Assembly (NCBI GenBank): GCA_029856105.1
Contig: JAHQWH010000015.1
Span: 32,001 to 96,000, forward strand
Origin: Promethearchaeia archaeon
Lineage (GTDB): Archaea; Asgardarchaeota; Lokiarchaeia; Sigyniarchaeales; SOKP01
Direction of reading: 5' to 3'
Length of the DNA: 64,000 bases
Shown here: in pieces, positions 3,612 to 28,669 of the stretch
Layout of the letters: every line of letters starts with the position of its first letter
How positions within the stretch are numbered: the first letter of the stretch is position 1
Notes under the pieces: generated by a model
Told to the model about the DNA's origin: nothing
Database searches by the model: none
The model's input: only the letters and a program-made list of their open reading frames with translations
Position numbers and translations under genes: made by a program

Positions 3612-4691
3612 ATGATTGCCTCAAAAGAACATAAGGAAAATTTAATTGAGTTTGCTAAAAAATTAAAATATAAAGCTCAATCATTTCCTAAGGACGAGAA
3701 TGGAGAGCCTACCGAAAAGTATCTTGAATATTTAAGTTTAATGTATGATCCAGAAATAATTAAGATTATTCTCCATTTAGATGTTTTCCCAAAATCTATG
3801 TCATTATCAAAGCTTTCGAAAAAGATTGGTATGGAAAAAGCTGATATATCAGCCAAACTTGCAGAAATCTGTAAGAGAGGATTTCTAATAAAAATAGGTA
3901 ATTATTACTCTTTACCAACGCCATTGTTTATTTACGACATGCCTTTTATTATAAAAGAAAATTATTCCAGAGACGAGATTGTTAAGTTTGCTCAATTAAG
4001 TAGAGAGTTTTACACTAACGATAAGTATTATAAGACATGGGAAAATAAAAGGGATGGTACGCCTCGCATGCGAGTCTTAACTGTTAGCGAGCAAGTTGAA
4101 CCTGGGCACCAAATAATTCCTATTGAAGAGGTTTATAATATAATTGAAACCAATACGGATTTTGCTGTAATTCCGTGTCCTTGCCGAAAAAGAGCGGAAG
4201 TTGAAGGGATTAGAGAATGTAAGGATAAATATCCCATTCACAATTGTATTCTGCTAGGACCAAACGCTAAAGCAGTATTAGAAATGGGAGATCCAGACAT
4301 AAAAGCAGCTAATAAAGAGGAGATAATAACACTTACTGAAGAGGCTGCTCAAATTGGATTAGTTCACGCTACAGATAACGATGCAACTAATTGCAATATA
4401 CTCTGTGCGTGCTGCGAATGTTGTTGTGGAATGTTAAAAGGAATCACTCGATTTGACAACCCTAGGGCTATCGCCAAAGCAAATTATATCTCACTTATAG
4501 ACGAAGAAAAATGTACGGGTTGCGAGACATGTTTAGAACGATGCAAATTTAACGCGATTACTATAGATGGCGTTGCTCACATAGACAGGAACAAGTGTTT
4601 AGGCTGTGGACTATGTGCTGTTACTTGTCCCAGTAATGCAATAACTATGGTAAGATTTGAAAGAGAGAACATTCCTGGAACGATTTCTTAA
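3612..4691 (+). CDS. 4Fe-4S dicluster protein with N-terminal wHTH-like region
   Basis: CPCR, CACCECCC and two C-terminal CxxCxxCxxxC ferredoxin motifs. Confidence 0.8.
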   Translation: MIASKEHKENLIEFAKKLKYKAQSFPKDENGEPTEKYLEYLSLMYDPEIIKIILHLDVFPKSMSLSKLSKKIGMEKADISAKLAEICKRGFLIKIGNYYSLPTPLFIYDMPFIIKENYSRDEIVKFAQLSREFYTNDKYYKTWENKRDGTPRMRVLTVSEQVEPGHQIIPIEEVYNIIETNTDFAVIPCPCRKRAEVEGIRECKDKYPIHNCILLGPNAKAVLEMGDPDIKAANKEEIITLTEEAAQIGLVHATDNDATNCNILCACCECCCGMLKGITRFDNPRAIAKANYISLIDEEKCTGCETCLERCKFNAITIDGVAHIDRNKCLGCGLCAVTCPSNAITMVRFERENIPGTIS

Positions 4692-4813
4692 AAATGATTC
4701 TTAACTTCTTATCATCTTTTTAGGAAATAATACTTCAATATCAAATTATCGGATTAATAATTTTATTTAAAAATTTTAATCAGATTAAATATATTGTGGA
4801 TGTGATTTAAAAA

Positions 4814-6211
4814 ATGGGAGGATTATTCGGAGTTTTTTCAAATAAAGATTGTATTAATGATTTATTTTACGGAACAGATTATCATTCACATCTGGGAACT
4901 AAAAGAGGGGGTTTGGCTGTAAAAAACTCTGGTGGTTTTCAAAGGTTCATCAAGGATATCACGACGAGCCAATTTAGATCTAAGTTTGATAAGGATATCA
5001 AGAAAATGCATGGAAATAAAGGTATCGGAGTCATTAGTGACTACGAAGATCAACCTTTAATTATCAGTTCGCGCTTAGGTGTTTTTGCCATTTCAACAGT
5101 AGGTAAAATTAATAACATAGAAGAACTCGCAAGCGAAGCCTTACAAAATGGAACTCATTTCTCAGAAATGCATGGAGGAGAAATTAACCCTACAGAAATG
5201 GTAGCAACAATAATTAGCCAAGCTGCTACATTTGAAGAAGGTATTCAAAAGGTTCAAGCTATGATCTATGGTTCTTGTACCATTCTTATCTTAACTGATG
5301 AAGGTATATTCGCTGCGCGCGATTCGCTAGGTAGAACGCCTCTCGTTATAGGTGAAAAGCCCGGTTCTTATGCTGTTGCAATGGAAACTTGTGCGTTCCC
5401 AAACCTTGGTTATAAAATCACAAAATATCTAGGACCTGGAGAAATCGTTTTTCTAAGTGAAAAGGGTTTCGAACAAAAGGTTGCACCAGGTAATAGATTG
5501 CAGATTTGTGCTTTCTTATGGGTCTACTATGGATATCCTGCTTCCAATTATGAAGGGATAAATGTTGAATCTGTACGGTATAAATGTGGTGCTTATCTAC
5601 GGAGAGAGGATGAACTGGAGATTGATCTCATAGCAGGGATCCCAGATTCTGGTACAGCTCATGGATTAGGTTATGCTAACGAAGCACATCTTCCTTATGT
5701 ACGACCCTTTGTAAAGTATACGCCAACATGGCCTCGAAGTTTCATGCCTCAGGAACAATCCATTAGAGATACCGTCGCAAAGATGAAACTTATACCGATT
5801 GAAGAACTTATCACGGACAAGCGTCTTCTTTTTTGCGAGGACTCAATCGTGAGAGGCACGCAATTGAGAAGGCAAGTTGAGAGGTTGTTTGAATCGGGGG
5901 CAAAAGAAGTACACATGAGACCTGCTTGTCCTCCACTTGTTTACGGGTGTAAATTTTTAAACTTCTCTCGATCTAGTTCTGAATTAGATTTAGCAGGAAG
6001 ATGGGCCATTAAAGAATTAATTGGAAAGGATCTCGAAAATCCCGTAGAGTATACCAATCCTGAGTCTGATAATTATAAAGCAATGGTTAATGTTATACGC
6101 GAAAAGTTGCATTTAACGACATTAAAATATCAGAAGCTAGAAAACCTAGTTAAAGCTATTGGATTACCTAAAGAAAAACTGTGTACCTATTGTTGGGATG
6201 GCGTAGAATAG
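4814..6211 (+). CDS. Amidophosphoribosyltransferase-like protein lacking the N-terminal catalytic Cys
   Basis: PurF fold motifs (ARDSLG, IPDSG, EDSIVRGT, C-terminal CTYC) but begins MGGLFG. Confidence 0.85.
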   Translation: MGGLFGVFSNKDCINDLFYGTDYHSHLGTKRGGLAVKNSGGFQRFIKDITTSQFRSKFDKDIKKMHGNKGIGVISDYEDQPLIISSRLGVFAISTVGKINNIEELASEALQNGTHFSEMHGGEINPTEMVATIISQAATFEEGIQKVQAMIYGSCTILILTDEGIFAARDSLGRTPLVIGEKPGSYAVAMETCAFPNLGYKITKYLGPGEIVFLSEKGFEQKVAPGNRLQICAFLWVYYGYPASNYEGINVESVRYKCGAYLRREDELEIDLIAGIPDSGTAHGLGYANEAHLPYVRPFVKYTPTWPRSFMPQEQSIRDTVAKMKLIPIEELITDKRLLFCEDSIVRGTQLRRQVERLFESGAKEVHMRPACPPLVYGCKFLNFSRSSSELDLAGRWAIKELIGKDLENPVEYTNPESDNYKAMVNVIREKLHLTTLKYQKLENLVKAIGLPKEKLCTYCWDGVE

Positions 6212-9060: not shown

Positions 9061-9433
9061 ATTTTATCACTAAAAGTTATTTTTTATTTTTTGTAAAAGA
9101 AGTTCGTTAATTTATATTTATATCTTTTCACTCTTAAAAAAATTTAGTATGTGAATGACTTTTTAGTCCAGTTTTTAAGTTTTTTATTAAATTCTATTTC
9201 CATTTATTTAAAATCATAGATGCATCCTAATTTTTGGCTTATGAATTCAAAATTCACATCTTATTTTTAATTAAAACGATCTTTTAATACCGATAATCCA
9301 ATTCTCATATTAACTTAAATTAAATAATAAATCTTTATAAAAATCATAGATTTTTAATACTAATATTACAATTTCAATTTATTTATCAATTTAAGATTAA
9401 TCAAAACTTAACTTATAACTTAGGAAATTTACG

Positions 9434-11155
9434 ATGAGCGATTTAATAATAAAAAATGGCTTAGTTTACGACCCTTTGAACGATATCGACGGCGAGAAGA
9501 AGGATATCTACGTCAAAGATGGCGTGGTTGTTAATAAAGTTAATGGAGACGCCAAAGTTATCGATGCCACGGGCATGATAATTATGCCGGGAGGAGTTGA
9601 TATTCATTCACACATCGCCGGGGCAAAAGTTAATGCTGGACGAACATTACGACCGGAAGATAAAGTGCCAGAAAGTAACGAGAAAAAAACTAAAATAAGG
9701 CGATCTGGCACAGGATTTAGCGTACCAAGTACATGGGCTACGGGTTATAGATACGCCACGTTAGGATATACGACCGTATGTGAACCTGCTATGCCTTTAT
9801 TGGAAGCTCGACATACTCACGAAGAGTTTTTAGAAACTCCTATTATCGATAAACTCGCAATGCCAATCCTTGGAAATAACTGGTATGTCCTCAAATTTGT
9901 AAGGGAGAAAGATATCGAAAAGTTAGCAGCGTACGTAAACTGGATTATGAAAGTTACGAAAGGTTATGCGATTAAAATAGTCAATCCAGGAGGTGTAGAA
10001 AATTGGGCTTGGGGTAAGAATTGCGATAGCGTAGACTCTCCAGTTTTGCATTGGGATGTTACACCAAGGCATATTGTCGAAAGTTTAGCAAAAGCAAACG
10101 AATTATTAGGATTACCACATTCAATTCATGTCCATTGTAATAATTTAGGTCACCCTGGAAATTACGAGCATTCAATAGAAACCTTTAAAATTTGCGAAGG
10201 AATCGAACCCTATGGTGAAAGAGAAAGATCACTTCATGTTACCCACTGCCAATTCAATGCGTATGCCGGCACAAATTGGGGTGATTTTGAATCAGGAGCA
10301 TCCCAAATAGCAGAGTATGTCAATTCGCACAAACACATGTCTTTGGATGCCGGCCAAGTTGTTTTTACAAAATACGCTACGACAACGATGACGGGCGACG
10401 GTCCTTGGGAACACGCTCTCCACCATCTCGGAGGGATGAGTCCTTGGGGCGCAAAACCAGGTATGAAATGGATAAACGGTCAAGTCGAAGGGGAGTCAGG
10501 ATCGGGAGTAGTACCCTATTTCTTCTCTCCGAAAACGGGAGTAAACGCCGTCCAATGGGCAATTGCCCTCGAGTTAATGCTCTTAATCAAAGATCCTTGG
10601 CAGATTAGCCACACGACAGACCATCCCAACGGAGCGCCATTTACGACTTATCCTATTGTATTCAAATGGTTAATGGATCGCAAATCCCGAAAAGATATGC
10701 TAGAGAATGTTGTCTCAAAGAAAGCAAGTACAGCGTCAACGCTTCCAGATTTAGACCGAGAATACACTCTAAATGAGTTGTGCATCGTCACGAGAGCAGG
10801 AAACGCAAAAACCTTAGGGTTAAAAGATCGAGGTCATCTTGGCGTTGGTGCAATCGGTGATGTGGCGATTTATAAATTAGATCCTGAAAAGATGGATGGA
10901 CATTCAATTGAGAAAGCGTTTTCGAGAGCAGCGTATACGATAAAAGAAGGTCAAATAGTGGTAAAAAACGGAGAAATCATGGCAACACCTATGGGAACAT
11001 TAATTCGCGCTGAAGGGAAAATTAAGGAAAGCGTTCACGAAGATATGATGGAAGACGTGAAAGCTTCTTGGCGGGACCACTACAGCATTAATTTTAACAA
11101 TTACGCGGTACAAGACGCGTACGCTCCTAAAGAAAAGATTATTAATGGAGCTTAA
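9434..11155 (+). CDS. fwdA: Formylmethanofuran dehydrogenase subunit A
   Basis: PGGVDIHSHIAG, KIVNPGG, HSIHVHCNNLG, TTDHPNG. Confidence 0.95.
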   Translation: MSDLIIKNGLVYDPLNDIDGEKKDIYVKDGVVVNKVNGDAKVIDATGMIIMPGGVDIHSHIAGAKVNAGRTLRPEDKVPESNEKKTKIRRSGTGFSVPSTWATGYRYATLGYTTVCEPAMPLLEARHTHEEFLETPIIDKLAMPILGNNWYVLKFVREKDIEKLAAYVNWIMKVTKGYAIKIVNPGGVENWAWGKNCDSVDSPVLHWDVTPRHIVESLAKANELLGLPHSIHVHCNNLGHPGNYEHSIETFKICEGIEPYGERERSLHVTHCQFNAYAGTNWGDFESGASQIAEYVNSHKHMSLDAGQVVFTKYATTTMTGDGPWEHALHHLGGMSPWGAKPGMKWINGQVEGESGSGVVPYFFSPKTGVNAVQWAIALELMLLIKDPWQISHTTDHPNGAPFTTYPIVFKWLMDRKSRKDMLENVVSKKASTASTLPDLDREYTLNELCIVTRAGNAKTLGLKDRGHLGVGAIGDVAIYKLDPEKMDGHSIEKAFSRAAYTIKEGQIVVKNGEIMATPMGTLIRAEGKIKESVHEDMMEDVKASWRDHYSINFNNYAVQDAYAPKEKIINGA

Positions 11156-13919: not shown

Positions 13920-14324
13920 ATGAAAGGGTTAAAGAAAAGGCGGGAGTTTAAAACTTCGCTTGAAGACTTGTTAAAAGATATTATGGATAATATTGAAGGT
14001 GTGAAAGCAGCGCAACTAACTGCAGATACTGGTCAACCACTCGCCTCTATACTACCAACAAGTGCAGATGACATGCGATTAGCAGCCATGACTGCGGCAC
14101 ATTGTTCATTGAGTGAACGTGCTATTGGAGAAATGGGTCTTGGCGAATTTGAACAATCGTACATAAAAGGAAGTAAGGGATACATATTGATTTTACATGC
14201 CGGGGAAGATAAAGTTTTAAGTGTATCTACTACAAAAGACGTTAAACTCGCGCCAATCCTATACAAGCATTACAAACAACTAGAAGATGGCGACGAAATA
14301 GTAAGTAGTACGCCCCCTGTTTAA
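13920..14324 (+). CDS. Roadblock/LC7 (MglB-like) domain protein
   Basis: GVKAAQL...G.PLAS.LP...RLAAMTAA..SLSERA..E.G.GEFEQ.YIKGSKGYILI. Confidence 0.9.
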   Translation: MKGLKKRREFKTSLEDLLKDIMDNIEGVKAAQLTADTGQPLASILPTSADDMRLAAMTAAHCSLSERAIGEMGLGEFEQSYIKGSKGYILILHAGEDKVLSVSTTKDVKLAPILYKHYKQLEDGDEIVSSTPPV

Positions 14325-15161: not shown

Positions 15162-16604
15162 TTATAACTTTTTATCTTCGATATCGATACCTAGTTCTCT
15201 TAACCGTTCGCGTATTACATCGCTTAGGTCGTAGAGTTTTTTATCTCTTAACTTAGCGCGTATTTCGATTATTAAATTAACGAGACTTTTGATGAGTTTA
15301 TCTTTCTCATCCATGCTTTTAAACGAGAAAGGTGTCATTTTAGCGTTTAAAGATGGAAAAATTCCGAAAATCTTTTCATTAAATTCTATAAATTTGAAAA
15401 ATCGATCCTTAAATTCTTGGTTTATTTTCAAGCCATCTTGTAGTATAGCTTTGTTAATTTCTCTAAATAACGTCAATAACTCTGCCAAGGCTACAGGAGT
15501 GTCAAAATCGTCTTCCATAGCGTCAATAATTTTGTTTTCTGCATTTTCGATTTTTGCAATTAACTCGTTAAGTTGCTTTGATTTCGATTCAGCAAATTCA
15601 GCATCGTTCACTTTTTTAATCGTGTTTATTAATCGGTTATAAGTATTTTTAGCTTGCTCCATGCTTTCAATAGTATAATTATTTGAACTTCGATAATGAC
15701 TCGATATCAAATACCAACGAATAACCATTGGGTCATATTGCTTGGCAATATCTGCTACTGTGAAAATGTTTCCGAGACTTTTAGACATTTTTTCATCTTT
15801 TACATTAACATAACCGTTATGAAGGAAATAATTCGCAATTTTTTTACCAGTGTAAGACTCAGACTGCGCGATTTCGTTCCTGTGGTGTGGAAATTTCAAG
15901 TCTTGACCGCCCCCGTGTATGTCAATTGTTTCTCCTAAAAAGTTCAAGATCATAGCAGAACATTCAATGTGCCATCCAGGACGCCCCTCACCCCAGGGGC
16001 TTTCCCAAAAAGGCTCTCCTTCTTTCATCTTTTTCCACAACGCAAAATCTCGACTATCTAACTTATCTTCTCCAAATGCAGTATCTTGATCCACTACATA
16101 ATCTTCTTCTTCGCTTTCCTTTCCTTCATCTTTACTCTTTTGAAGAATAGAACTATATCCAGGAAACGATTTAACTGAGAAGTATACGGACCCATTTTTC
16201 TCGTAAGCGTGTCCCTTAGAAATTAATTCTTTAATAAAATTAATTATAAAATCTATTACTTCGGTTGCGCGTGGATTTCGCGTATCATGCTCGACATTGA
16301 GCATTTCCATGATTTCCTCATATTCAGCGATATAATGATCGCTTAAAGTCCTGAAATCGATGTTTCTCTCTTTAGAACTCTTAATTATTTTATCGTCAAT
16401 ATCAGTATAATTTTTTACTATATTAACTTTATAGCCCTTAAACTTTAAATACCTGTGAATTAAATCAAAAGCGACTGCGGACTTTGCGTGACCAAGGTGA
16501 GGCGAACCATATACTGTAACGCCACAAACATACATCTTGACTTTTCCGGGTTCGATTGGCTTAAATTCTTCCTTTTTAAACGTTAAGCTATTATAAACTT
16601 TCAT
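15162..16604 (-). CDS. cysS: Cysteine--tRNA ligase
   Basis: YVCGVTVY, HLGH, DFALWK, GRPGWHIEC, HGGGQDLKFPHH, KMSKS. Confidence 0.97.
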   Translation of the reverse strand: MKVYNSLTFKKEEFKPIEPGKVKMYVCGVTVYGSPHLGHAKSAVAFDLIHRYLKFKGYKVNIVKNYTDIDDKIIKSSKERNIDFRTLSDHYIAEYEEIMEMLNVEHDTRNPRATEVIDFIINFIKELISKGHAYEKNGSVYFSVKSFPGYSSILQKSKDEGKESEEEDYVVDQDTAFGEDKLDSRDFALWKKMKEGEPFWESPWGEGRPGWHIECSAMILNFLGETIDIHGGGQDLKFPHHRNEIAQSESYTGKKIANYFLHNGYVNVKDEKMSKSLGNIFTVADIAKQYDPMVIRWYLISSHYRSSNNYTIESMEQAKNTYNRLINTIKKVNDAEFAESKSKQLNELIAKIENAENKIIDAMEDDFDTPVALAELLTLFREINKAILQDGLKINQEFKDRFFKFIEFNEKIFGIFPSLNAKMTPFSFKSMDEKDKLIKSLVNLIIEIRAKLRDKKLYDLSDVIRERLRELGIDIEDKKL

Positions 16605-16932: not shown

Positions 16933-17460
16933 CTATTTAAAACATTTTCCACAACATTGACCATTTAAATTTGAATTTAAACTACAACTATCGAAATTAA
17001 AATCAAATGGCAAAACAAAATCATTCGTAACATCGGTTATTATGTCCACATAAACCGAAGAGACGTTAGAATTCTTTCTAAAGTGATTATTAACCATCTC
17101 ATCAATATTAGCTAGTTTAGTACCTATTACAAGAACACTGAGATTATAAGTGCCACTTAATCGAAATGCGTTTAGCATGTAAGGACAGTGTTTAACTAAT
17201 TCTATGGTTTTGTTTGGTTCTAAAGATTGAATTTCAACTCGTGCAAGGATTAAATCCATGGTTTTAACATTTATACCCGCTTGAAATTTTAAGACTCCCG
17301 CTTTTTCAAGCTTCCGAATCCTCATTCCGATCGTTGGTTGGCTCCGATCAACTCTTTTTGCGATTTCTGTATGAGTAAGCGTAGGCTCCTTTTGAATTAT
17401 TTCAATTATATTCTTATCAATCTCGTCTATTTTAAAGACTTGACTTTCCATTATCTCCAT
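16933..17460 (-). CDS. Lrp/AsnC family regulator with Cys-rich tail
   Basis: IDEIDKNII...EIAKRV.RSQPTI..RIRKLE..GV HTH, RAM domain, tail CCGKC. Confidence 0.88.
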   Translation of the reverse strand: MEIMESQVFKIDEIDKNIIEIIQKEPTLTHTEIAKRVDRSQPTIGMRIRKLEKAGVLKFQAGINVKTMDLILARVEIQSLEPNKTIELVKHCPYMLNAFRLSGTYNLSVLVIGTKLANIDEMVNNHFRKNSNVSSVYVDIITDVTNDFVLPFDFNFDSCSLNSNLNGQCCGKCFK

Positions 17461-17625
17461 CTTAAATTTTTAATTTTTTACTTATATTCATTAATAACGA
17501 TATGCCGATATATAAATGTTACGATGGTTTATTAATAAAATATTAATTAATATTAATAAATCATTAAAAATATCTTTAAAAGCGATTAAAATCAATATAC
17601 CTAAAATACGATAGGATATTATTAA

Positions 17626-17961
17626 ATGAGTGAAAGTAAAATAGAGTTTATTGAGTTTTTAAGAGTTTTAGCAGATCAGACTCGATTAGATATACTAGAT
17701 TTATTGCGATATGAGAAAAAGACTTCTTCTGAAATTCAAACAGCCTTAGACAAGTCTCAATCTACAATTTCTCAACACTTAAAGGCTCTAAGTAACAAAA
17801 ATCTCATTATTTTTGATAAAAATAATAATGTTAAGTCCTATAAAATTAAGGATCCAAATATCTTTAAGCTCTTAGAAGAAATTAAATCTTTTGTTGTAAA
17901 AATTAATCAAGAAAAACTCAAAGACTTGAGAGATTTAGACGTAATAGATACGTTATCGTGA
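17626..17961 (+). CDS. ArsR/SmtB family regulator
   Basis: LADQTRLDIL...SQSTISQHLKAL. Confidence 0.9.
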   Translation: MSESKIEFIEFLRVLADQTRLDILDLLRYEKKTSSEIQTALDKSQSTISQHLKALSNKNLIIFDKNNNVKSYKIKDPNIFKLLEEIKSFVVKINQEKLKDLRDLDVIDTLS

Positions 17962-17988
17962 TTAATCGATTTTTAATCCCTTATTTAA

Positions 17989-18540
17989 ATGAATACAGCG
18001 ATGAGAGAAAACACAACAATTAACGCAAAAAAAGTATTAATCATGGGGTTAGATAATTCCGGTAAAACATCTATCGTATTATGTTTGAGGGGTGTGAAGA
18101 ATCTTTCGTCGTTTTCCTCGCTAAATCCTACGAGAGGGTTTAAGATCAATAAATTCCAAGCATTAGGCTCAGAATATAGCATCTGGGATTTCGGTGGGCA
18201 AGAACAATTTCGAGAGGGTTATTTAAACGACTTTCAAAACCACATAAAAAAAACTAATAAGTTCATTTATGTTTTGGACATCCAAGATCAGGAGCGGTTT
18301 AATAAATCGTTAGACTACTTAGATAAAATCGTTATCCTATTAAGGAAACATAAAGTAAATATTGATTTCTCTATATTTTTACATAAATACGATCCAGATT
18401 TGGAATTCACAAATAAAGAATTTATTGATAAACTGGTTTCTGATTTAATCAGAAATATAAAAGAATTAATTCCAAACGATTTTACGTATCAAATTTACAA
18501 AACATCGATTTATACTGTTTTTCAAAAATTTGGAATATAA
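17989..18540 (+). CDS. Small GTPase, Rag/Arf-related (start may be 18001)
   Basis: G1 GLDNSGKT, G2 PT, G3 WDFGGQ, G4 HKYD, G5 TSI. Confidence 0.92.
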   Translation: MNTAMRENTTINAKKVLIMGLDNSGKTSIVLCLRGVKNLSSFSSLNPTRGFKINKFQALGSEYSIWDFGGQEQFREGYLNDFQNHIKKTNKFIYVLDIQDQERFNKSLDYLDKIVILLRKHKVNIDFSIFLHKYDPDLEFTNKEFIDKLVSDLIRNIKELIPNDFTYQIYKTSIYTVFQKFGI

Positions 18541-18566
18541 AAAATAAGAAAAGGAATGGATATTTT

Positions 18567-20786
18567 TTGATTAGCAAAGTGAAAGATTCAGAAGCATCGA
18601 TAATTCGGGGTTTTTTAAACGATTATACAATATTAATAGTGATATTATTTCTTACCTATTTAACAAGTCTCTATAGTTACTTACTTTTTCATTCAATAAT
18701 TGAAATAATTAGTATTGTTATTTCAGGGGGGATTTTTATTGTTGGTTGGCACTCAAGAAAATACATGAATAGCTCCTTCTTTTTGGTAGTAGGTATTTCT
18801 TTTCTTTTCATAAGTATAATTGATTTACTTCACACCTTAGCCTACTCAGGAATGGGGATTTTTCTTGAATTCGACGCGAATCTTCCAACGCAATTGTGGA
18901 TTGTAGCCCGATATTGGCAAGCACTCTCCTATTTATTTGCTTCTATGGTCATAAAAAAAAAGATTAAAGCTAATTATTTATTCGTAAGCTATATCATTAT
19001 AATTCTTATTTTATTAACCACCATATTTCAAGGTTTCTTCCCTGTATGTTATATCAAAGGTTCGGGGCTCACTCCTTTTAAAATAATTAGTGAATACGCA
19101 ATTGATACAATTCTTTTTGTTACACTAATAGTATTATACAAGCATAAAGACGAGTTTGCTGAGAAAATATTTCTTTTAATTGTAATATCCATTATTGCCA
19201 CAATGATCTCAGAATTGGCGTTTACTTTCTATATTAGTGTATTTGGCTTCTCAAATTTTATTGGTCACATTTTTAAAATAATTGCCTTTTTCTTTGTCTA
19301 TAAGGCAATAATCGAATTGGGCATAGAAACTCCATTTGATTTATTATTTAGGAAGTTGAAGTTGAGCGAGGAATCTTCGATTGAAAAAGCGAACCAATTA
19401 GAACAAGCTTACTCTGAATTTAACCAAATGTTCAACGCATCTCTACCATTAAGGGTAATCAGTAATAACGGCGATATTTTGCGAGTTAATGAGACATACG
19501 CTTCTCTTTTCCACTTAACCAAAGAAGACCTTATAGGTAAAAAATGTTTTGACCTTCAATTAGGGTACGAACATCGATGTCATACAGAAATATGTTCAAG
19601 GAATCAAATTCTAGATGGAAAAGACTATTATGAATATGAATTAATCACAAAATTCGATGACGGTACTAAGATTGTTAGTCTTGTAAGATCAGTTCCTCAT
19701 AGAAGTGCAAATGGTGAAGTCATTGGACTGATACAAAATTTTACTAATATTACTGAGCGTAAATTTGCGCAAGAAAAAATTGAGGATATGGCAAGGTTTC
19801 CAATGGAAAATCCTAACCCCACATTAAGAGTAAGTAACAATTATATTCTTTTAGCAAATAAAGTGAGTCAATACTTATTCTTAGTCGGAGAAGGGAGTAA
19901 TATCCCTAAGTTTTTACAGGAACACATCCATAAAGCCTTTTCTGAGAACCTTAATTTAGAAATAGAGTTGAATATTAAAGATCAAATTTATTCTCTTTTC
20001 ATTGTACCAATGAAAGATAGAGGATATGCAAATATATACGGTATGAATATTACAGCTCGGAAAGAAGCTGAAAAAAGCTTGGAACGCTTTGTTTCAACGG
20101 TATCGCATGAATTAAGAACCCCAATTTCGGTTTTAATTATGTCGCTTGATTTTTTAGATAATCATTCTGAAAAAGTTACTCCAGGTATAGAAAAAAAATT
20201 GCAGGAAGGAATCAAAAGAAACATTTATCTTCTAAAAGAATTAGTTGACGATATTTTAACGTTATCAAGAATAGACGAGCGTAAATTAAAACTAAAGTGG
20301 GACGAGTATAATCCACTTAAGATTATGGGTGACATATTAACTTTAATGGAGCCTATTGGAAATGCGAAAAATATTACTTTTAGCGTAGATATAGATAAAA
20401 ACATTAAATTGTATGGGGATAAAACAAAAATTGACCAAATATTTCGTATTTTTATCGATAACTCCATAAAATATTCAAAGGAGAGTAACAAAATAGAGAT
20501 TAGAGCTATTAATCATTATAAAGGGAAATACAACATAGAGGAAAAAGATGGTGTTTTATTCCAGATTAAAGATTATGGAGTAGGAATTTTGGAAGAAGAT
20601 TTGCCATCTATTTTTCAAAGATTTTTTAGATCTGAACAAGTAAGCAATATTCCAGGTACGGGGTTAGGATTATCTATAGCAAAAGAACTATTAAAAATTC
20701 ATGGTGGCGAAGTATGGGTTCAAAGCGATTATGATAAAGGATCAACTTTTTCTATTTTTCTGCCGATAATTGAAAAAAGAATATAA
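18567..20786 (+). CDS. MASE3-PAS sensor histidine kinase
   Basis: YLLFHSIIE...DLLHTLAY.GM (MASE3), PAS, SHELRTP, DYGVG, GTGLGL. Confidence 0.92.
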   Translation: MISKVKDSEASIIRGFLNDYTILIVILFLTYLTSLYSYLLFHSIIEIISIVISGGIFIVGWHSRKYMNSSFFLVVGISFLFISIIDLLHTLAYSGMGIFLEFDANLPTQLWIVARYWQALSYLFASMVIKKKIKANYLFVSYIIIILILLTTIFQGFFPVCYIKGSGLTPFKIISEYAIDTILFVTLIVLYKHKDEFAEKIFLLIVISIIATMISELAFTFYISVFGFSNFIGHIFKIIAFFFVYKAIIELGIETPFDLLFRKLKLSEESSIEKANQLEQAYSEFNQMFNASLPLRVISNNGDILRVNETYASLFHLTKEDLIGKKCFDLQLGYEHRCHTEICSRNQILDGKDYYEYELITKFDDGTKIVSLVRSVPHRSANGEVIGLIQNFTNITERKFAQEKIEDMARFPMENPNPTLRVSNNYILLANKVSQYLFLVGEGSNIPKFLQEHIHKAFSENLNLEIELNIKDQIYSLFIVPMKDRGYANIYGMNITARKEAEKSLERFVSTVSHELRTPISVLIMSLDFLDNHSEKVTPGIEKKLQEGIKRNIYLLKELVDDILTLSRIDERKLKLKWDEYNPLKIMGDILTLMEPIGNAKNITFSVDIDKNIKLYGDKTKIDQIFRIFIDNSIKYSKESNKIEIRAINHYKGKYNIEEKDGVLFQIKDYGVGILEEDLPSIFQRFFRSEQVSNIPGTGLGLSIAKELLKIHGGEVWVQSDYDKGSTFSIFLPIIEKRI

Positions 20787-20850
20787 ACTAACTTCTCCTT
20801 ATTCTATCCTAATAGACATTTAAAACAATACAAATTCAGTCAGATTTGAT

Positions 20851-21747
20851 TTGAAACCTCTAATTCTTATTGTTGAAGATAATGTTGATTTGTTGTACAA
20901 TATAAATTTAGTGTTAGAATCGAATAATTATAAACCGATTACTGCTAAAAACGGAAAAGTAGCTCTAAAAATTCTTTCGGAACTTGAACAGATTCCTGAT
21001 ATTATCATTAGCGATATAATAATGCCTGAAATGAATGGTTATGAGTTTTTTAGAGTGATATCCAAAGAACCTCGATGGAATCGAATTCCTTTCGTTTTTC
21101 TTTCTGCTCGCACTACTCCTAAAGATATTAGACTTGGAAAGTTGCTAGGAGTAGACGATTATTTAACAAAGCCATTTGACGAAAAAGACTTGTTAGCTAT
21201 AATATCTGGTAAAATTGCCCGTATTAATAGAGTAAATGCTTTAAACAACAAAATCGATGAAGTCTTTTCAACCATGGATATCGAAATGAAGATGTCGGCT
21301 ACTAGTGACCATGGAGAATTTATATGCTTATTACTAACCTTTTGGGACGATAAGTTTGGTCCCAATTTAAATTGCTATTACCCTGAAGAAAAAGATTTTT
21401 CCATATCCTTAGACGATATTTCAAATCAATTGTTTACGGTAGCAAATTCCATTTATGGTCAAAACAAAATAACTAAGGCTGAAGGTGTTTTATTAAACAT
21501 TGAAAATTTAAATAGTCGTGGATACCTTTTTTTTGATTCGTATCCTGATAAAGAAGAGAGATTTGGAGAAAAACAATATATGATTGCAATTATCGCTCCA
21601 TTAATAAACTATTTTCATACTTTAAAGATTAAAGATGTATTTACTGATTTATCAGATAAGATTAAAAATAAATTGAATTGGAACATCAAAGAATATTGGA
21701 AAAGAGTTTACGATATTTTGTTGATTGAAACAATACAAATAGAATAG
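20851..21747 (+). CDS. Response regulator with C-terminal longin/uDENN-like domain
   Basis: REC motifs VEDN, SDIIMP, LSA, KPF; C-terminal CLLLTFWDDKFGP...YP. Confidence 0.85.
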   Translation: MKPLILIVEDNVDLLYNINLVLESNNYKPITAKNGKVALKILSELEQIPDIIISDIIMPEMNGYEFFRVISKEPRWNRIPFVFLSARTTPKDIRLGKLLGVDDYLTKPFDEKDLLAIISGKIARINRVNALNNKIDEVFSTMDIEMKMSATSDHGEFICLLLTFWDDKFGPNLNCYYPEEKDFSISLDDISNQLFTVANSIYGQNKITKAEGVLLNIENLNSRGYLFFDSYPDKEERFGEKQYMIAIIAPLINYFHTLKIKDVFTDLSDKIKNKLNWNIKEYWKRVYDILLIETIQIE

Positions 21748-21792: not shown

Positions 21793-22731
21793 CTAAAAGC
21801 GATACAATTCTGTTGAGAGATATTTTTCTCCTCCGTCAGGTAAGAGTGCAACGATATTTTCTCCTTCTACGAAATCTTTTGAAGCTTCGAAAATTGCTGC
21901 CCATGCACAGGCTCCTGCTGAAATTCCAATGAATATGCCTTCCATTCTAGCTAATTTTCTAGCCGTCTCGATGGCATCTTTGTAGTCAACCTTTATAATT
22001 TTGTCGTAAATTTTAATATTTAACACTTCGGGGATAAAACCAGCACCTATACCTTGGATTTTATGAGGACCTGGTCTCTCACCTGATAAGATCGCAGAAT
22101 CCTTAGGTTCTACTGCGTAAACCTTCATTCTCGCCCCAACCCTATCTTTTAATACCTCACCGACTCCTGTTATTGTTCCACCAGTCCCTATTCCAGCAAC
22201 AAACCCATCCACTTGACCGGCTAAATCGTTAAATATCTCTATAGCTGTAGTTTTTCGGTGTATATCTGGGTTAGCTAGGTTTTTAAATTGTTGAGGGATG
22301 AATACTTTTCCTTTTTCTTTAGCTATTTCTTCCGCTTTTGAAATCGATCTTTTCATACCACCTTCTTTTGGGGTTAAAACTACCTCAGCACCAAAGGCTT
22401 TTAGAATTTGGACTCTCTCGATAGTTACGCTTTCGGGCATTACTAAAGTTATTTTATATCCTTTTGACGCACACACAAGCGCTAGACCAATGCCCGTATT
22501 TCCAGAAGTAGGCTCTACTATGGTTGTATCTTTATCAATAAGACCTTCCTCTTCGGCTTTAAGTATCATGTTCATTCCAATTCTATCTTTAACGCTACCC
22601 CCAGGGTTAAAAGACTCCAATTTTACAAATACATTGGGCTTAACGCTTCCAACGATTCTGTTTAATTTCACTAAGGGCGTTTTCCCAATTGCTTCAACTA
22701 TATTTTTATAATAATTTGCCATTAAATCCAC
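21793..22731 (-). CDS. cysK: Cysteine synthase A
   Basis: NPGGSVKDR, EPTSGNTG, GTGGT, PHKIQGIG. Confidence 0.96.
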   Translation of the reverse strand: MDLMANYYKNIVEAIGKTPLVKLNRIVGSVKPNVFVKLESFNPGGSVKDRIGMNMILKAEEEGLIDKDTTIVEPTSGNTGIGLALVCASKGYKITLVMPESVTIERVQILKAFGAEVVLTPKEGGMKRSISKAEEIAKEKGKVFIPQQFKNLANPDIHRKTTAIEIFNDLAGQVDGFVAGIGTGGTITGVGEVLKDRVGARMKVYAVEPKDSAILSGERPGPHKIQGIGAGFIPEVLNIKIYDKIIKVDYKDAIETARKLARMEGIFIGISAGACAWAAIFEASKDFVEGENIVALLPDGGEKYLSTELYRF

Positions 22732-22765: not shown

Positions 22766-23611
22766 TTATATTCCACTACCATTTTCTCCGTAAAATATTT
22801 CGATATCGTCTTCTGTTGGTTTCGAACTATGAGGAAAATGTTTCTCCAATTCTTTGATTCTTTTATTTAAACTCGAGAAAGCGATTGAAATTGGGTCGGG
22901 AAGTTCACCGTGGCGCAAATCAATTTTTTCGATTTTTTCTCCTTTTTTCGATACAATTTTCGCAGGAACCCCTACGACTACGCAATTTGAAGGCACATCG
23001 CTAACAACCACGGAATTTGCGCCAACTCTCACGTTTTCTCCAAGAGTAATAGGTCCTAAAATCTTTGCGCCAGTACCAACAACAACATTATCACCTAAAG
23101 TGGGGTGCCTTTTTTTTTGTTCCAAATTAGTACCCCCTAAAACTACGCCTGCGTAAATCGTTACATTGTTTCCAATCTCAGTTGTTTCCCCTATAACTAC
23201 TCCGGCTCCGTGGTCTATAAAGAATTCGCTACCAATCTCTGCTCCTGGATGAATTTCTACAGCAGTCAGATCTCGTGCGATACCAGAGATATATCTAGGT
23301 ATGTATGGTAATCCTAATTTCCAAAAGAAATGCGCAATGCGATATAGTAATACGGCTTTAATCCCAGGATAACTTGTTAAAACTTCAATTAAGGTGCGTG
23401 CAGCGGGATCTTTATTAAACGCAGCATTCACATCCGAAACAAAGAAATTTAAGATACCTTGAAGATACTTGTTAATTTCTCTGTAATCTAAATCCTCCGT
23501 TTTAAATTCTAATTTTAGCAAACAATCTGTGCATTGGTTCCTTCCACTTATTGGTTTAAAACCTAACTTTTTACCACAAGATAAACATCTAAGAAAATCA
23601 TCCGTTTCCAT
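22766..23611 (-). CDS. cysE: Serine O-acetyltransferase with N-terminal zinc-ribbon extension
   Basis: DPAA, EIHPGA.IG, FIDHG.GVVIGET, KRHPT hexapeptide repeats. Confidence 0.94.
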   Translation of the reverse strand: METDDFLRCLSCGKKLGFKPISGRNQCTDCLLKLEFKTEDLDYREINKYLQGILNFFVSDVNAAFNKDPAARTLIEVLTSYPGIKAVLLYRIAHFFWKLGLPYIPRYISGIARDLTAVEIHPGAEIGSEFFIDHGAGVVIGETTEIGNNVTIYAGVVLGGTNLEQKKRHPTLGDNVVVGTGAKILGPITLGENVRVGANSVVVSDVPSNCVVVGVPAKIVSKKGEKIEKIDLRHGELPDPISIAFSSLNKRIKELEKHFPHSSKPTEDDIEIFYGENGSGI

Positions 23612-25804: not shown

Positions 25805-28669
25805 ATGATTTCCGACGATAACAAGCGCGAAAATGTTAAGACTCAATTTCAAATAATTATGGAAATTGTTAACGATTTGGTGATGATTATTGATCAAACG
25901 GAAGATTTCAAAATTGAGTTAATTAACGATTGCCCGTTATTGGAAAATTTAGGATACGCTGAAAGTGATTTGGTCGGGAATTCGTTTCTAAATATACTAT
26001 TTTCGGAAGATAAAAAAAAAGCAATAAGATTTTTAAAAAAGGGGATCGATACTTTTGATAATTTTCAAGAAGTAAAGTTATTTTCAGCGAAAGATGAAAT
26101 AATTTGGGTGGAAATAAAAGCAAGAAAATTTACGGACGAGGATAAAAACGAGAAAATATTAATTATTGTGAAAGATATCTCAAAACAAAAAAGAATCGAA
26201 GGAAATTTAAGAGAAACTGAAGATAGATTTAAAAAAATAACAGATACTATCCCAGAAATACGCTTTTGGAAATTATTTAATCCTAAAAAATATGAGGAGG
26301 CTTTGCAGAGCAGTTATGAAATGCTACAGATGGTAATAGAAAATATCCCACAATATATTATATGGAAGGATATTGATCAGAGTTATCTCGGATGTAACGA
26401 TAATTACGCAAAATTAATTGAGATTGAACACCCTGAAAATATTATAGGAAAAACTGACGAAGAATTGCTTTTAGATAAGAACCAAATACAATTTAACAAA
26501 GAACAAGAAAGGAAAGTTATCGAATCTAATAAAGTTGTTTTTCATACTAATGAATCATGGATCCTCAGAAACGGAGAAAAGATTTGGATTGATGTAAATA
26601 GAATTCCTTTGTTAAACTCTGATGGAAATGTTGCAGGACTTTTAATTACTTTTGAAGATATTACCGAACGGAAGAACGCTGAGGAGAATTTGCGTAAACA
26701 ACATGAGAGATTAGAACGAATTATGGAAACCAATCCCGCAGGAATCTTATCTGTTGATACTATCGGTCATATTATATATGTCAATTCTCAAGCTGAAAAA
26801 GTCTTACATTATCCTAAAGAAGAATTGTTAAAAAAAACATTTTTAACCACTAAATTTAAATTTTTAAACTCAGAAGGCAAACTTATTCCTAAGAATGAGC
26901 TACCTTTTCAGATTATTACGAAAACGAAAAAACCACTATTTGATTATCATGCGACTTTTAAGTCATTTACGAATGAAAATATTCTACTTTCTATCAATGG
27001 TACGCCTTTATTAAAGAATAACGGAGAAATCGAGAATATAATTTTTACAGTAGAGGATATTACTGAAAAAGAATTAGCTGAAAAAAAAATTAAAGATTCA
27101 GAAGAAAAATATAAGGACTTATTAGAGACATCAACAATTGGTATTTTAGAAATAGAGTTGGAAAATAATAGCGTTTCTTACATTAATCCAAAATTATTAG
27201 AATTTATTGGGTATCAAGATGTTGACTATGTCAACAAAAAATTGATGGATGAAATAATTCATCCAGACGATCTGCTAAAGTTGTTAAATTCAGAAGAAGG
27301 AAAGGATATCGAATTTAGAATTGTGACTAATAAAGGAAAAATAAAATGGTTACAAGGAAAAAGATTAAATCAATACGACGATAGAGATAATCTAATTAGT
27401 TTTAGATTATGGTTAGAAGACGTCACTGAAAAAAAAATGTACGAAGAATTGATTTATGAGTTAAATATTAATTTTTTAAACTACACAACGGACATTCAAC
27501 AAAATATCGAATTATTGTTAAAAACTTGCTTAAAATTACTTAATGGTGACATTGTACTATACATCACTAAAAGCGATCATGAAGAAGAAGAGCAATATCG
27601 GGTAATGAGTAGTAAAGGGGACATCACAATGTATCCTTCGGGAGCGTTTACGAAAGATTTGTTTGTAAGCGAATTATTTATAGAAAATCACGACTTTACT
27701 CAGGAATTCTTTGACATTCATAAAACGAAGTATGCCAAGTCTGATCGTTATATAATTGAAAACGGTATCGAAGCTTGTTATGGTAAATTAATCCTATCTG
27801 GAAACGACTTAAATAGTTTACTCTGCGTTTTGTTTAAACAAAATCCAACTATTACCAACCAAAATAAATTGGTGCTATTTTTAATATGCGATGCTCTCGA
27901 AATAGAGCAAAGAAGGTGGGAATCTCAACAACATTTGGAAGAACAAAACCGAATGTTAAGCGAAATAAATAAATTAAAAAGCGATTTGTTTTCAAGAACT
28001 TCGCACGAATTAAAAACGCCATTAATTTCTATTAAAGGATTCACCGAGTTATTGTTAAAACTACACTCAAATAAGTTGGACAGCGATGTTATTTCGATTT
28101 TAGAGGAGATTAAGAGCGGTAGTAAGCGCCTTGAAGATTACATTAACTCACTTGTCGAAAGCTCTCAATTAGATCAAGGGTTGTTGAAAATAAAAAAAAA
28201 GAGAGAGAATCTTACATTTTTAATTAAATATTGCATTAAGCAATTATCTGGTACGGCCAAATTAAGAGAACAGAAGGTTAAACTAAATATTAAGAATAAT
28301 ATATATGCAAATTTTGATAAAGAGAAAATTTACGAAGTTATCACCAATTTGTTGATTAATGCAATAAAGTATACTCCTATTGGGGGTACAATTACAATTG
28401 ATTCTCATCAAAAAAACCATTATTATATAATTTCGATAAATGACACCGGCATTGGACTAACTAAAAAAGAAATAGCGCAACTTTTTACGCAGTTTGGTAA
28501 AATTGAAAGATACGGCCAGGGATGGGACGTAGGCATCGAAGGGACAGGATTAGGATTGTACATTTCGAAAGAATTAATTGACCTTCACGACGGGAATATA
28601 TGGGTCGAATCAGAAGGCCGGAACAAAGGAAGTACTTTTTTCTTTTCTATACCAATAGAAAAAAAATAA
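25805..28669 (+). CDS. Cytoplasmic multi-PAS histidine kinase
   Basis: About 4 PAS repeats (DITE.K), SHELKTP, NAIKY, GTGLGL. Confidence 0.92.
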   Translation: MISDDNKRENVKTQFQIIMEIVNDLVMIIDQTEDFKIELINDCPLLENLGYAESDLVGNSFLNILFSEDKKKAIRFLKKGIDTFDNFQEVKLFSAKDEIIWVEIKARKFTDEDKNEKILIIVKDISKQKRIEGNLRETEDRFKKITDTIPEIRFWKLFNPKKYEEALQSSYEMLQMVIENIPQYIIWKDIDQSYLGCNDNYAKLIEIEHPENIIGKTDEELLLDKNQIQFNKEQERKVIESNKVVFHTNESWILRNGEKIWIDVNRIPLLNSDGNVAGLLITFEDITERKNAEENLRKQHERLERIMETNPAGILSVDTIGHIIYVNSQAEKVLHYPKEELLKKTFLTTKFKFLNSEGKLIPKNELPFQIITKTKKPLFDYHATFKSFTNENILLSINGTPLLKNNGEIENIIFTVEDITEKELAEKKIKDSEEKYKDLLETSTIGILEIELENNSVSYINPKLLEFIGYQDVDYVNKKLMDEIIHPDDLLKLLNSEEGKDIEFRIVTNKGKIKWLQGKRLNQYDDRDNLISFRLWLEDVTEKKMYEELIYELNINFLNYTTDIQQNIELLLKTCLKLLNGDIVLYITKSDHEEEEQYRVMSSKGDITMYPSGAFTKDLFVSELFIENHDFTQEFFDIHKTKYAKSDRYIIENGIEACYGKLILSGNDLNSLLCVLFKQNPTITNQNKLVLFLICDALEIEQRRWESQQHLEEQNRMLSEINKLKSDLFSRTSHELKTPLISIKGFTELLLKLHSNKLDSDVISILEEIKSGSKRLEDYINSLVESSQLDQGLLKIKKKRENLTFLIKYCIKQLSGTAKLREQKVKLNIKNNIYANFDKEKIYEVITNLLINAIKYTPIGGTITIDSHQKNHYYIISINDTGIGLTKKEIAQLFTQFGKIERYGQGWDVGIEGTGLGLYISKELIDLHDGNIWVESEGRNKGSTFFFSIPIEKK

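Follow-up and report, generated by a model that had tools for sequence, protein, structure and literature searches.

The window analysed here is a stretch of 64,000 nucleotides (positions 32,001 to 96,000 of contig JAHQWH010000015.1, assembly GCA_029856105.1) from a 3.66-Mb Lokiarchaeal/Promethearchaeota metagenome-assembled genome, and it carries a cassette of four co-oriented open reading frames on the forward strand that are separated by only 27, 26 and 64 bp. In order, these genes encode an ArsR/SmtB-type winged-helix regulator, a small GTPase of Rag/Arf-like type, a membrane sensor histidine kinase with a MASE3 domain, and a response regulator in which a receiver domain (REC) is followed by a longin output domain (REC-longin). 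The TTG starts assigned to the kinase and the regulator are supported, because the orthologues align from residue 1. A previous reading of this DNA made without database searches (the sequence-only reading) had listed the same genes and gaps, in exact agreement with the list of open reading frames, and had proposed a phosphorelay-controlled switch of a Rag-like GTPase; its observations are confirmed by the present analysis, and its interpretation is partly supported.

On the response regulator, Pfam recognizes Response_reg at residues 5-118 only, and nothing is matched on residues 125-298. AlphaFold2, supplied with a 69-sequence alignment, predicted the whole regulator with a predicted local distance difference test (pLDDT) of 87.4 and a predicted template modelling score (pTM) of 0.83, and the output domain alone likewise with a pLDDT of 87.4. 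The elements of the modelled output domain are β1 (159-166), β2 (170-177), α1 (187-202), β3 (211-217), β4 (222-232), β5 (240-249), α2 (254-272) and α3 (279-291), which correspond to the ββαβββαα order by which a longin is defined, with a five-stranded sheet flanked by a single helix on one side and by two on the opposite side. In an exhaustive structural comparison (VIA), the best match was the Lokiarchaeal longin 8yqg (Z 14.3, root-mean-square deviation 2.5 Å over 130 residues), followed by FLCN (Z 11.8), C9orf72-SMCR8 (11.7), Lst4 (11.4), FNIP2 (10.6), an NPRL subunit (9.8) and DENND1A (9.8), and roadblock proteins such as MglB scored near 8. Foldseek ranked FNIP2, chains of the GATOR1 complex, the Loki longin and Lst4 at the top, and its six matches with E≤1e-3 were all chains containing a longin. 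Furthermore, the neighbours of the domain in the ESM-Atlas include Asgard clusters carrying Folliculin (PF11704) or NPR2 (PF06218), eukaryotic SMCR8, C9orf72 and FLCN, and an Asgard fusion of an Arf GTPase to a longin. Judged on its predicted structure, the output domain belongs with the longins of FLCN, NPRL2, SMCR8 and C9orf72 in its fold, and the longin-type C-terminal domain anticipated by the sequence-only reading has thus been borne out by topology, by the three structural searches and by the motifs described below.

The family defined by this output domain is large, with 178 close matches, almost all of them 298-aa REC fusions from Loki/Promethearchaeota, and with 166 clusters at 50% identity. 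A search of PDB chain sequences with a 54-member profile of the domain returned nothing meaningful, the best hit being a designed helical protein with an E-value of 8.9, and a Pfam scan of the 54 domain members at E≤1 gave no family that was matched by more than one of them. The sole sequence link to the FLCN model is an indirect one: hhalign aligned the output-domain profile at a probability of 95.5% with the longin at the N terminus of an Asgard protein of 446 aa (locus L054:2001-3338, + strand, genome G102), which itself matches Pfam Folliculin at 1.2e-4, just under threshold. A further bridge from this folliculin-like protein to FLCN by way of PDB sequences was rejected, only a spurious match to ribosomal protein S2 being obtained. 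The 446-aa gene belongs to another Asgard family and is adjoined by a Roadblock/LC7 gene (L054:1129-1617, + strand); on their sequences, the two look like a folliculin-like/roadblock pair.

In eukaryotes, longins of the FLCN/NPRL2/SMCR8 type switch Rag/Arf-type GTPases off. The longins that act as GTPase-activating proteins (GAPs), namely FLCN, NPRL2, SMCR8 and C9orf72, are reported to be set apart by a GP motif just before β2 and by an arginine finger; one class of Asgard longins has both of these as well, and the GP motif is absent from non-GAP longins (PMC12290439). Moreover, W33/D34 of C9orf72 are required for its Arf GAP activity (PMC8213707), and the arginine fingers of DENN/longin GAPs sit between β4 and β5 (preprint 10.64898/2026.01.05.697756). 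The output domain of the cassette has W165-D166-D167 followed by G170-P171 in the β1-β2 loop, and the spacing from W to G is that of C9orf72 (W165-D166…G170-P171 against W33-D34…G38-P39). A hydrophobic strand followed by this pattern and a further proline had been named as the opening of longin/uDENN domains, and the sequence quoted as the start of the output domain is indeed found at residues 157-180, with six residues instead of the stated five between P171 and P178. In the alignment of 69 family members, W165 is kept in 65, D166 in 53, D or E at position 167 in 56, G170 in 63 and P171 in 62, and R237, which lies in the β4-β5 loop, in 47. Across 111 cluster representatives, W, GP and R occur together in 76, and W and GP without the arginine in another 21.

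These motifs are seen together with D55 and K107 of the receiver domain in most REC-longin orthologues that stand beside an orthologue of the GTPase, the exception in W, GP and R near such a GTPase being the first of two copies at locus L057. In L045 and L046, which come from another family, the REC-longin is without the arginine, and no GTPase adjoins it. The two paralogues of L057 (genome G186, contig C300) are located at 4491-5348 and 9079-9939; the copy adjacent to the GTPase is without GP and R, and the second copy, 4 kb downstream, keeps both. Such a pair recalls the catalytic and non-catalytic subunits of FLCN-FNIP and NPRL2-NPRL3.

The receiver domain (PF00072) is intact, as had been claimed, with E9, D10, D55, S85, Y104 and K107 all present. 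D10, D55 and K107 are at least 90% conserved (no related locus lacks D55, and L049 alone lacks K107), and AlphaFold2 predicts a long helix α5 at regulator residues 111-141 that would link the receiver to the longin. The histidine kinase is matched by MASE3 (2.7e-79), PAS_4 (1e-10), HisKA (2.6e-13) and HATPase_c (6e-25); it has the H-box HELRTP at 514-519, with His514, as well as N, G1 and G2 boxes, and it scores 370 bits against the NCBIfam model MASE3_PAS_HK, under the cut-off of 560. Orthologous kinases keep MASE3 and the catalytic core and exchange the PAS module, so that the signal is not readable from the kinase sensor, which seems to have been swapped between lineages. Within the PAS region (window positions 19400-19800, residues ~285-410) there is a Cys/His-rich stretch of the form C…C-H-x3-C. 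This motif was considered as a conserved mark of the signal and rejected, since the orthologous kinases have unrelated PAS domains and only L051 shares it.

Rag GTPases typically have HKxD and TSI, and the small GTPase of the cassette carries, as the sequence-only reading had pointed out, HKYD as G4 (132-135) and TSI as G5 (172-174), in addition to G1 GLDNSGKT (20-27) and G3 DFGGQ (67-71); the motifs are strongly kept among orthologues. Against Pfam it scores 79 bits with Gtr1_RagA (cut-off 22), a match confined to positions 1-161 of a model with 232 positions, and 74.5 bits with Arf. The protein stops just after G5, and the C-terminal roadblock domain of Rag/Gtr is absent. It is not a proper Arf either, having no Gly2, no N-terminal Arf helix and HKYD in place of NKxD, and only its G1 (GLDxxGKT) is Arf-like. 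Its nearest solved relatives are the Lokiarchaeal GTP-binding proteins 8yl2 (6e-29) and 8zla/9m28 'LokiRagM' (6.5e-20), followed by Arl3/Arf (~5e-14) and Gtr1 (~1e-10). By these sequence features, the protein is a Rag/Arf-like bare G domain and not a true Rag; the label 'Rag-like' is upheld by the Gtr1_RagA match and HKYD, and has to be qualified by the missing roadblock domain and the almost equal Arf score. The catalytic Gln of DxxGQ (Gln71) is present and a built-in arginine finger has left no sign in the sequence; a catalytic Gln in this motif is consistent with a GAP that supplies the arginine.

The ArsR-type protein is a winged helix-turn-helix protein that exceeds the cut-off of NF033788 (HTH_metalloreg, 62.8 bits against 55). 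It contains no cysteine and a single histidine, hence lacking the Cys/His metal ligands of the α3 or α5 sites, and this makes a metal sensor unlikely. More likely, from its composition, its activity depends on a partner protein or on plain autoregulation.

Gene order was compared in 20 related loci. The order ArsR-GTPase-kinase-REC-longin, together with a divergent AsnC/Lrp gene, was found in 11 of them, from three genera and at 42-79% protein identity; the four-gene arrangement is not due to chance. Among 201 genomes of the phylum that were searched with a profile, 51 had the longin domain, mainly in the family to which this archaeon belongs (34 of 40 genomes) and in one other family (10 of 10). 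Where both searches covered a genome, the best GTPase orthologue lay no more than 5 kb from the REC-longin gene in 16 of 20; in the remaining four, two cases are undecidable owing to contig ends, and in two the genes stand apart. Proximity is maintained in three different gene orders. The GTPase gene is followed by the response regulator without a kinase between them in L056 and L057 (with ArsR in front) and in L061 (where no ArsR gene was detected), the ArsR-GTPase pair is convergent with the kinase-regulator pair in L058, and in L040 and L049 the regulator is directly followed by a more distant GTPase. The conservation of gene order that had been named as a check of the four-gene switch was therefore found, and the unit is supported by linkage; what had not been weighed is that the tightest link lies elsewhere, between ArsR and the GTPase. 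This is the most constant pair of the cassette, the ArsR gene being immediately upstream in 16 of 17 loci with a GTPase orthologue. In one genus the pair occurs without a nearby REC-longin (L059, L060) or 25 kb from it (G144). REC-longin paralogues without a nearby GTPase were seen in L042, L044-L046 and L048, and in four genomes of one genus the profile searches found neither the longin domain nor the GTPase orthologue.

The same longin family has also been fused to signalling partners of several kinds: a Ras-like GTPase, an Arf-like GTPase, a kinase-REC, a kinase alone and an RsbRD_N domain. In the largest case, from relatives of the same family, one protein joins an Arf-like GTPase, a longin, PAS and GAF domains and a histidine kinase (Table 1). 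The fusions keep W-D…G-P and the arginine, with the proline replaced in the largest one, and they provide an independent tie of this longin type to small GTPases and His-Asp signalling. Frames of 614-1148 aa that resemble the largest fusion were matched in further genomes of the same family.

The cassette is flanked by a divergently oriented AsnC/Lrp-family gene, whose product has a Cys-rich C-terminal tail with five cysteines, and the AT-rich region between the two presumably harbours, to judge from its position and sequence, the promoters and operators of both. With few exceptions among the related loci, the AsnC/Lrp gene adjoins that for ArsR, at times in two or three copies, and no other gene accompanies the ArsR-GTPase pair so constantly from genus to genus. 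The genes cysS on one side and cysK-cysE on the other surround the cassette in all five loci of the same genus and in L034 and L035 of a second genus. In other genera these flanks are not conserved, and in L032, L033, L038 and L051 no cys genes border the cassette. A stand-alone Roadblock/LC7 gene is located 3.3 kb upstream, with orthologues (83-84% identity) adjoining cysS in L037 and L043 of the same genus; from its sequence, the encoded protein could be a partner for a GTPase that has no Rag-type roadblock domain of its own. Downstream at 4 kb lies a second large kinase, and several related loci show a match to the C-terminal part of a kinase at about the same distance.

Table 1. Features of the cassette and its surroundings in window coordinates, with a single-chain fusion of the same longin family from another genome
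Feature	Position	Strand	Basis
ArsR/SmtB-type winged-helix regulator, 111 aa	17626..17961	+	Pfam HTH_5 1.1e-13; NCBIfam HTH_metalloreg
Small GTPase, Rag/Arf-like, G domain only, 183 aa	17989..18540	+	Pfam Gtr1_RagA 4.7e-22, Arf 9.1e-21
MASE3-PAS-HisKA-HATPase_c membrane sensor histidine kinase, 739 aa, TTG start	18567..20786	+	Pfam
REC-longin response regulator, 298 aa, TTG start	20851-21747	+	Pfam Response_reg and AlphaFold2
REC domain and long α5 linker helix, residues 1-~141	20851..21249	+	Pfam Response_reg 4.9e-22
Longin output domain (predicted), residues ~157-298	21319..21747	+	AlphaFold2, structural comparison, motifs
AsnC/Lrp-family regulator, divergent from the cassette	16933..17460	-	Pfam HTH_24 8e-14, HTH_AsnC-type 5e-10, weak AsnC_trans_reg
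Divergent intergenic region, AT-rich, 165 bp	17461..17625	.	Sequence read
Stand-alone Roadblock/LC7 protein	13920..14324	+	Pfam Robl_LC7 4.8e-13
cysS, cysK, cysE flanking the cassette	15162-16604, 21793-22731, 22766-23611	all -	Neighbourhood
Second large kinase, 954 aa, PAS-like repeats	25805-28669	+	
1130-aa fusion in another genome	L053:2111-5500 (G049 contig C11)	-	Arf-like GTPase 153-314, longin, two PAS, GAF, histidine-kinase ATPase

From the motifs, the model and the analogy with eukaryotic longins, we propose that the REC-longin protein may act, gated by phosphorylation, as a longin GAP on the GTPase encoded beside it, a proposal to which we give an even chance. Whether the cassette as a whole would form a two-component pathway that ends in the control of a small GTPase and not in DNA binding appears to us equally balanced. 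In such a pathway, the MASE3-PAS kinase would sense a membrane or cytoplasmic cue, autophosphorylate on His514 and then phosphorylate the REC-longin protein at Asp55. The phosphorylated receiver and the long α5 linker helix would then alter the pairing of two chains, so that a longin-longin dimer is formed or released. This dimer would cradle the Rag/Arf-like GTPase in the manner of C9orf72-SMCR8, FLCN-FNIP and NPRL2-NPRL3, and Arg237 would enter the active site beside Gln71 to stimulate GTP hydrolysis. Given that each chain combines a W-D…G-P motif of the C9orf72 type with what would be an arginine of the SMCR8/FLCN type, a homodimer could replace the heterodimers of eukaryotes. The nucleotide state of the GTPase would finally be read by an effector, for which the cysteine-free ArsR-type repressor that always adjoins it is the leading candidate. 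The GAP role is supported by the fact that the best structural matches are longins acting on Rag or Arf GTPases.

However, several observations weigh against this proposal. Only one member of the family was found in a search of this genome, so that a GAP mechanism requires a homodimer, and we know of no eukaryotic longin GAP that is one. The regulator stops at residue 298, immediately past longin helix α3, and has no DENN or NPRL2 C-terminal domain; likewise, none of the 54 family members matches PF11704 or PF06218 at E≤1. R237 was assigned the place of the arginine finger from secondary structure and from the literature, and its equivalence to FLCN R164, NPRL2 R78 or SMCR8 R147 is accordingly positional and putative. 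Moreover, the arginine is absent from about 28% of the family representatives. Longins that act as guanine-nucleotide exchange factors (GEFs) or as passive platforms (TRAPP, Mon1-Ccz1, DENND1) are also in the match list at Z 8-10, and the separation of ArsR-GTPase from the kinase and regulator in one genus implies a looser link to the kinase.

Some of these points lead to the view that the REC-longin protein acts on the GTPase not as a GAP, and instead as a phospho-controlled GEF or as a platform or effector specific for one nucleotide state, which we regard as possible although unlikely. Precedents exist in the GEF longins of TRAPP, Mon1-Ccz1 and DENND1, in MglB, and in RomR/RomX, which binds MglA-GTP and has recently been re-read as an effector and not a GEF (PMC13408092). 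The presence of GEF-type longins along with roadblock proteins at Z 8-10, and the wider retention of W-D…G-P than of the arginine, would fit such a role, and conserved linkage and fusions suit any direct partner. Yet the top eukaryotic matches are the GAP-type FLCN, SMCR8/C9orf72, Lst4 and NPRL, the GP motif is the very feature reported to be missing from longins that are not GAPs (PMC12290439), and every REC-longin near a GTPase orthologue has the loop arginine apart from the first L057 copy. A different division of labour would be that the GTPase has ArsR as its partner or, on the model of a conservon, precedes the kinase in the pathway, and that the kinase and REC-longin form a separate unit whose longin binds some other partner. 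The constancy of the ArsR-GTPase pair, its occurrence in L059 and L060, where no REC-longin lies close by, and in G144, where it is 25 kb away, and the REC-longin paralogues that have no GTPase nearby point in this direction, as does the fact that the GTPases of conservons interact with the kinase with no response regulator involved (PMC4316618). Against it, the GTPase and REC-longin genes remain adjacent where no kinase stands between them (L056, L057, L061, L040, L049), both are missing together in the four genomes of one genus, and the same longin family is joined in single chains to Ras- and Arf-like GTPases. We consider the separate-unit arrangement improbable.

It has also to be asked what the cassette reports on, since the neighbourhood could be a cysteine- or amino-acid-sensing unit that conveys the state of the amino-acid or sulfur supply and is analogous in function to nutrient sensing by Rag-GATOR. 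The cysS and cysK-cysE flanks in the same-genus loci and in L034 and L035, and an AsnC/Lrp gene adjacent almost everywhere, are in favour of this, and a link of Asgard NPRL2-like longins to starvation signalling has been proposed in earlier work (Liu et al., 10.1101/2020.10.19.343400). On the contrary, cys genes are lacking from the flanks of L032, L033, L038 and L051, the PAS sensor of the kinase is not conserved and its Cys-rich motif recurs in L051 only, and MASE3 has no ligand on record; we therefore judge the sensing unit highly improbable. It adds a signal and no mechanism, and is compatible with a REC-longin GAP.

To our knowledge, Asgard archaea possess small GTPases and longin or roadblock proteins by the dozen, almost none of which has been assigned a partner or a function. 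Asgard GTPase genes are generally not found in operons with longin or roadblock genes (PMC10933270), and the question of which Asgard GTPases partner the GP-motif longins has been raised (PMC12290439, Traffic 2025). The sequence-only reading knew of no characterised system of this form, and this was an overstatement. Many fusions of NPRL2-like longins to two-component domains have been described in Asgard archaea, and growth control through two-component systems with 'eukaryotic' regulators has been suggested (Liu et al., 10.1101/2020.10.19.343400; Nature 2021). The present regulator resembles those fusions in having a REC or kinase joined to an NPRL2/FLCN-type longin. It differs in that the cassette supplies a fixed candidate substrate, whereas the fusions are listed there, in the text consulted, without an operon with a specific GTPase, an ArsR partner or an analysis of motifs. 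The Asgard longins with GP motif and arginine finger (PMC12290439) and 8yqg, the best structural match, follow the same motif logic; the former are stand-alone, Roadblock-longin or FLCN-like proteins with no partner GTPase assigned, and the longin of the cassette is fused to REC.

The closest eukaryotic counterparts are FLCN-FNIP (acting on RagC/D), NPRL2-NPRL3 of GATOR1 (RagA/B) and C9orf72-SMCR8 (Arf), which have in common with the cassette protein the longin, the GP motif and the loop arginine, and whose clients are, as the candidate client here, Rag/Arf-type GTPases with a catalytic Gln. Unlike them, the cassette protein has no DENN/NPRL2 C-terminal domain, no second longin subunit in its genome and no Pfam-level match, it carries REC in front, and it would be controlled by His-Asp phosphorylation in place of lysosomal scaffolds. 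Links between small GTPases, two-component parts and roadblock regulators are likewise known in bacteria, from MglA/MglB/RomR of Myxococcus and from the conservon CvnA-D of Streptomyces (PMC4316618), which further lessens the novelty once claimed. In these systems, however, MglB and CvnB are roadblock proteins, neither longins nor fused to REC, the output of RomR (with RomX) is not a longin, and the GTPases are of MglA type and not Rag/Arf-like. A conservon consists of a kinase, a Roadblock protein, a DUF742 protein and an MglA-type GTPase with no response regulator, whereas the cassette has a response regulator and contains no roadblock or CvnC gene. Lastly, Thaumarchaeal REC-NitrOD3 proteins join REC to an output of the Roadblock/LC7 superfamily (Galperin et al. 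2018, PMC5847659); they belong to another phylum, their output is roadblock-related and not an FLCN-type longin, and no GTPase neighbour was reported. The class of longin-two-component fusions and the motif idea have already been published; what the present locus contributes is conserved linkage, by which a candidate pair of GTPase and regulator is fixed together with its kinase and ArsR partner.

The cassette names a specific GTPase, a candidate GAP, a kinase that may gate it and a possible transcriptional read-out. Each of these is a protein or domain small and soluble enough for reconstitution in vitro, and the pair is directly testable. It also bears on whether one homodimeric longin does the work of the heterodimers of eukaryotes. 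A bolder interpretation is that the entire Rag-GATOR/folliculin axis might have a prokaryotic precursor in the cassette, with a single-gene, homodimeric phospho-gated longin GAP, a bare G domain whose nucleotide state would control the ArsR-type repressor, and transcriptional output through the latter, possibly in response to amino-acid or sulfur status; this we consider unlikely, and it would mean that here small-GTPase signalling ends in transcription. If the REC-longin protein is indeed a phosphorylation-gated GAP, longin-type GAP chemistry for Rag/Arf-like GTPases would be older than eukaryotes, and the cassette would show how this chemistry was controlled before TOR-type signalling.

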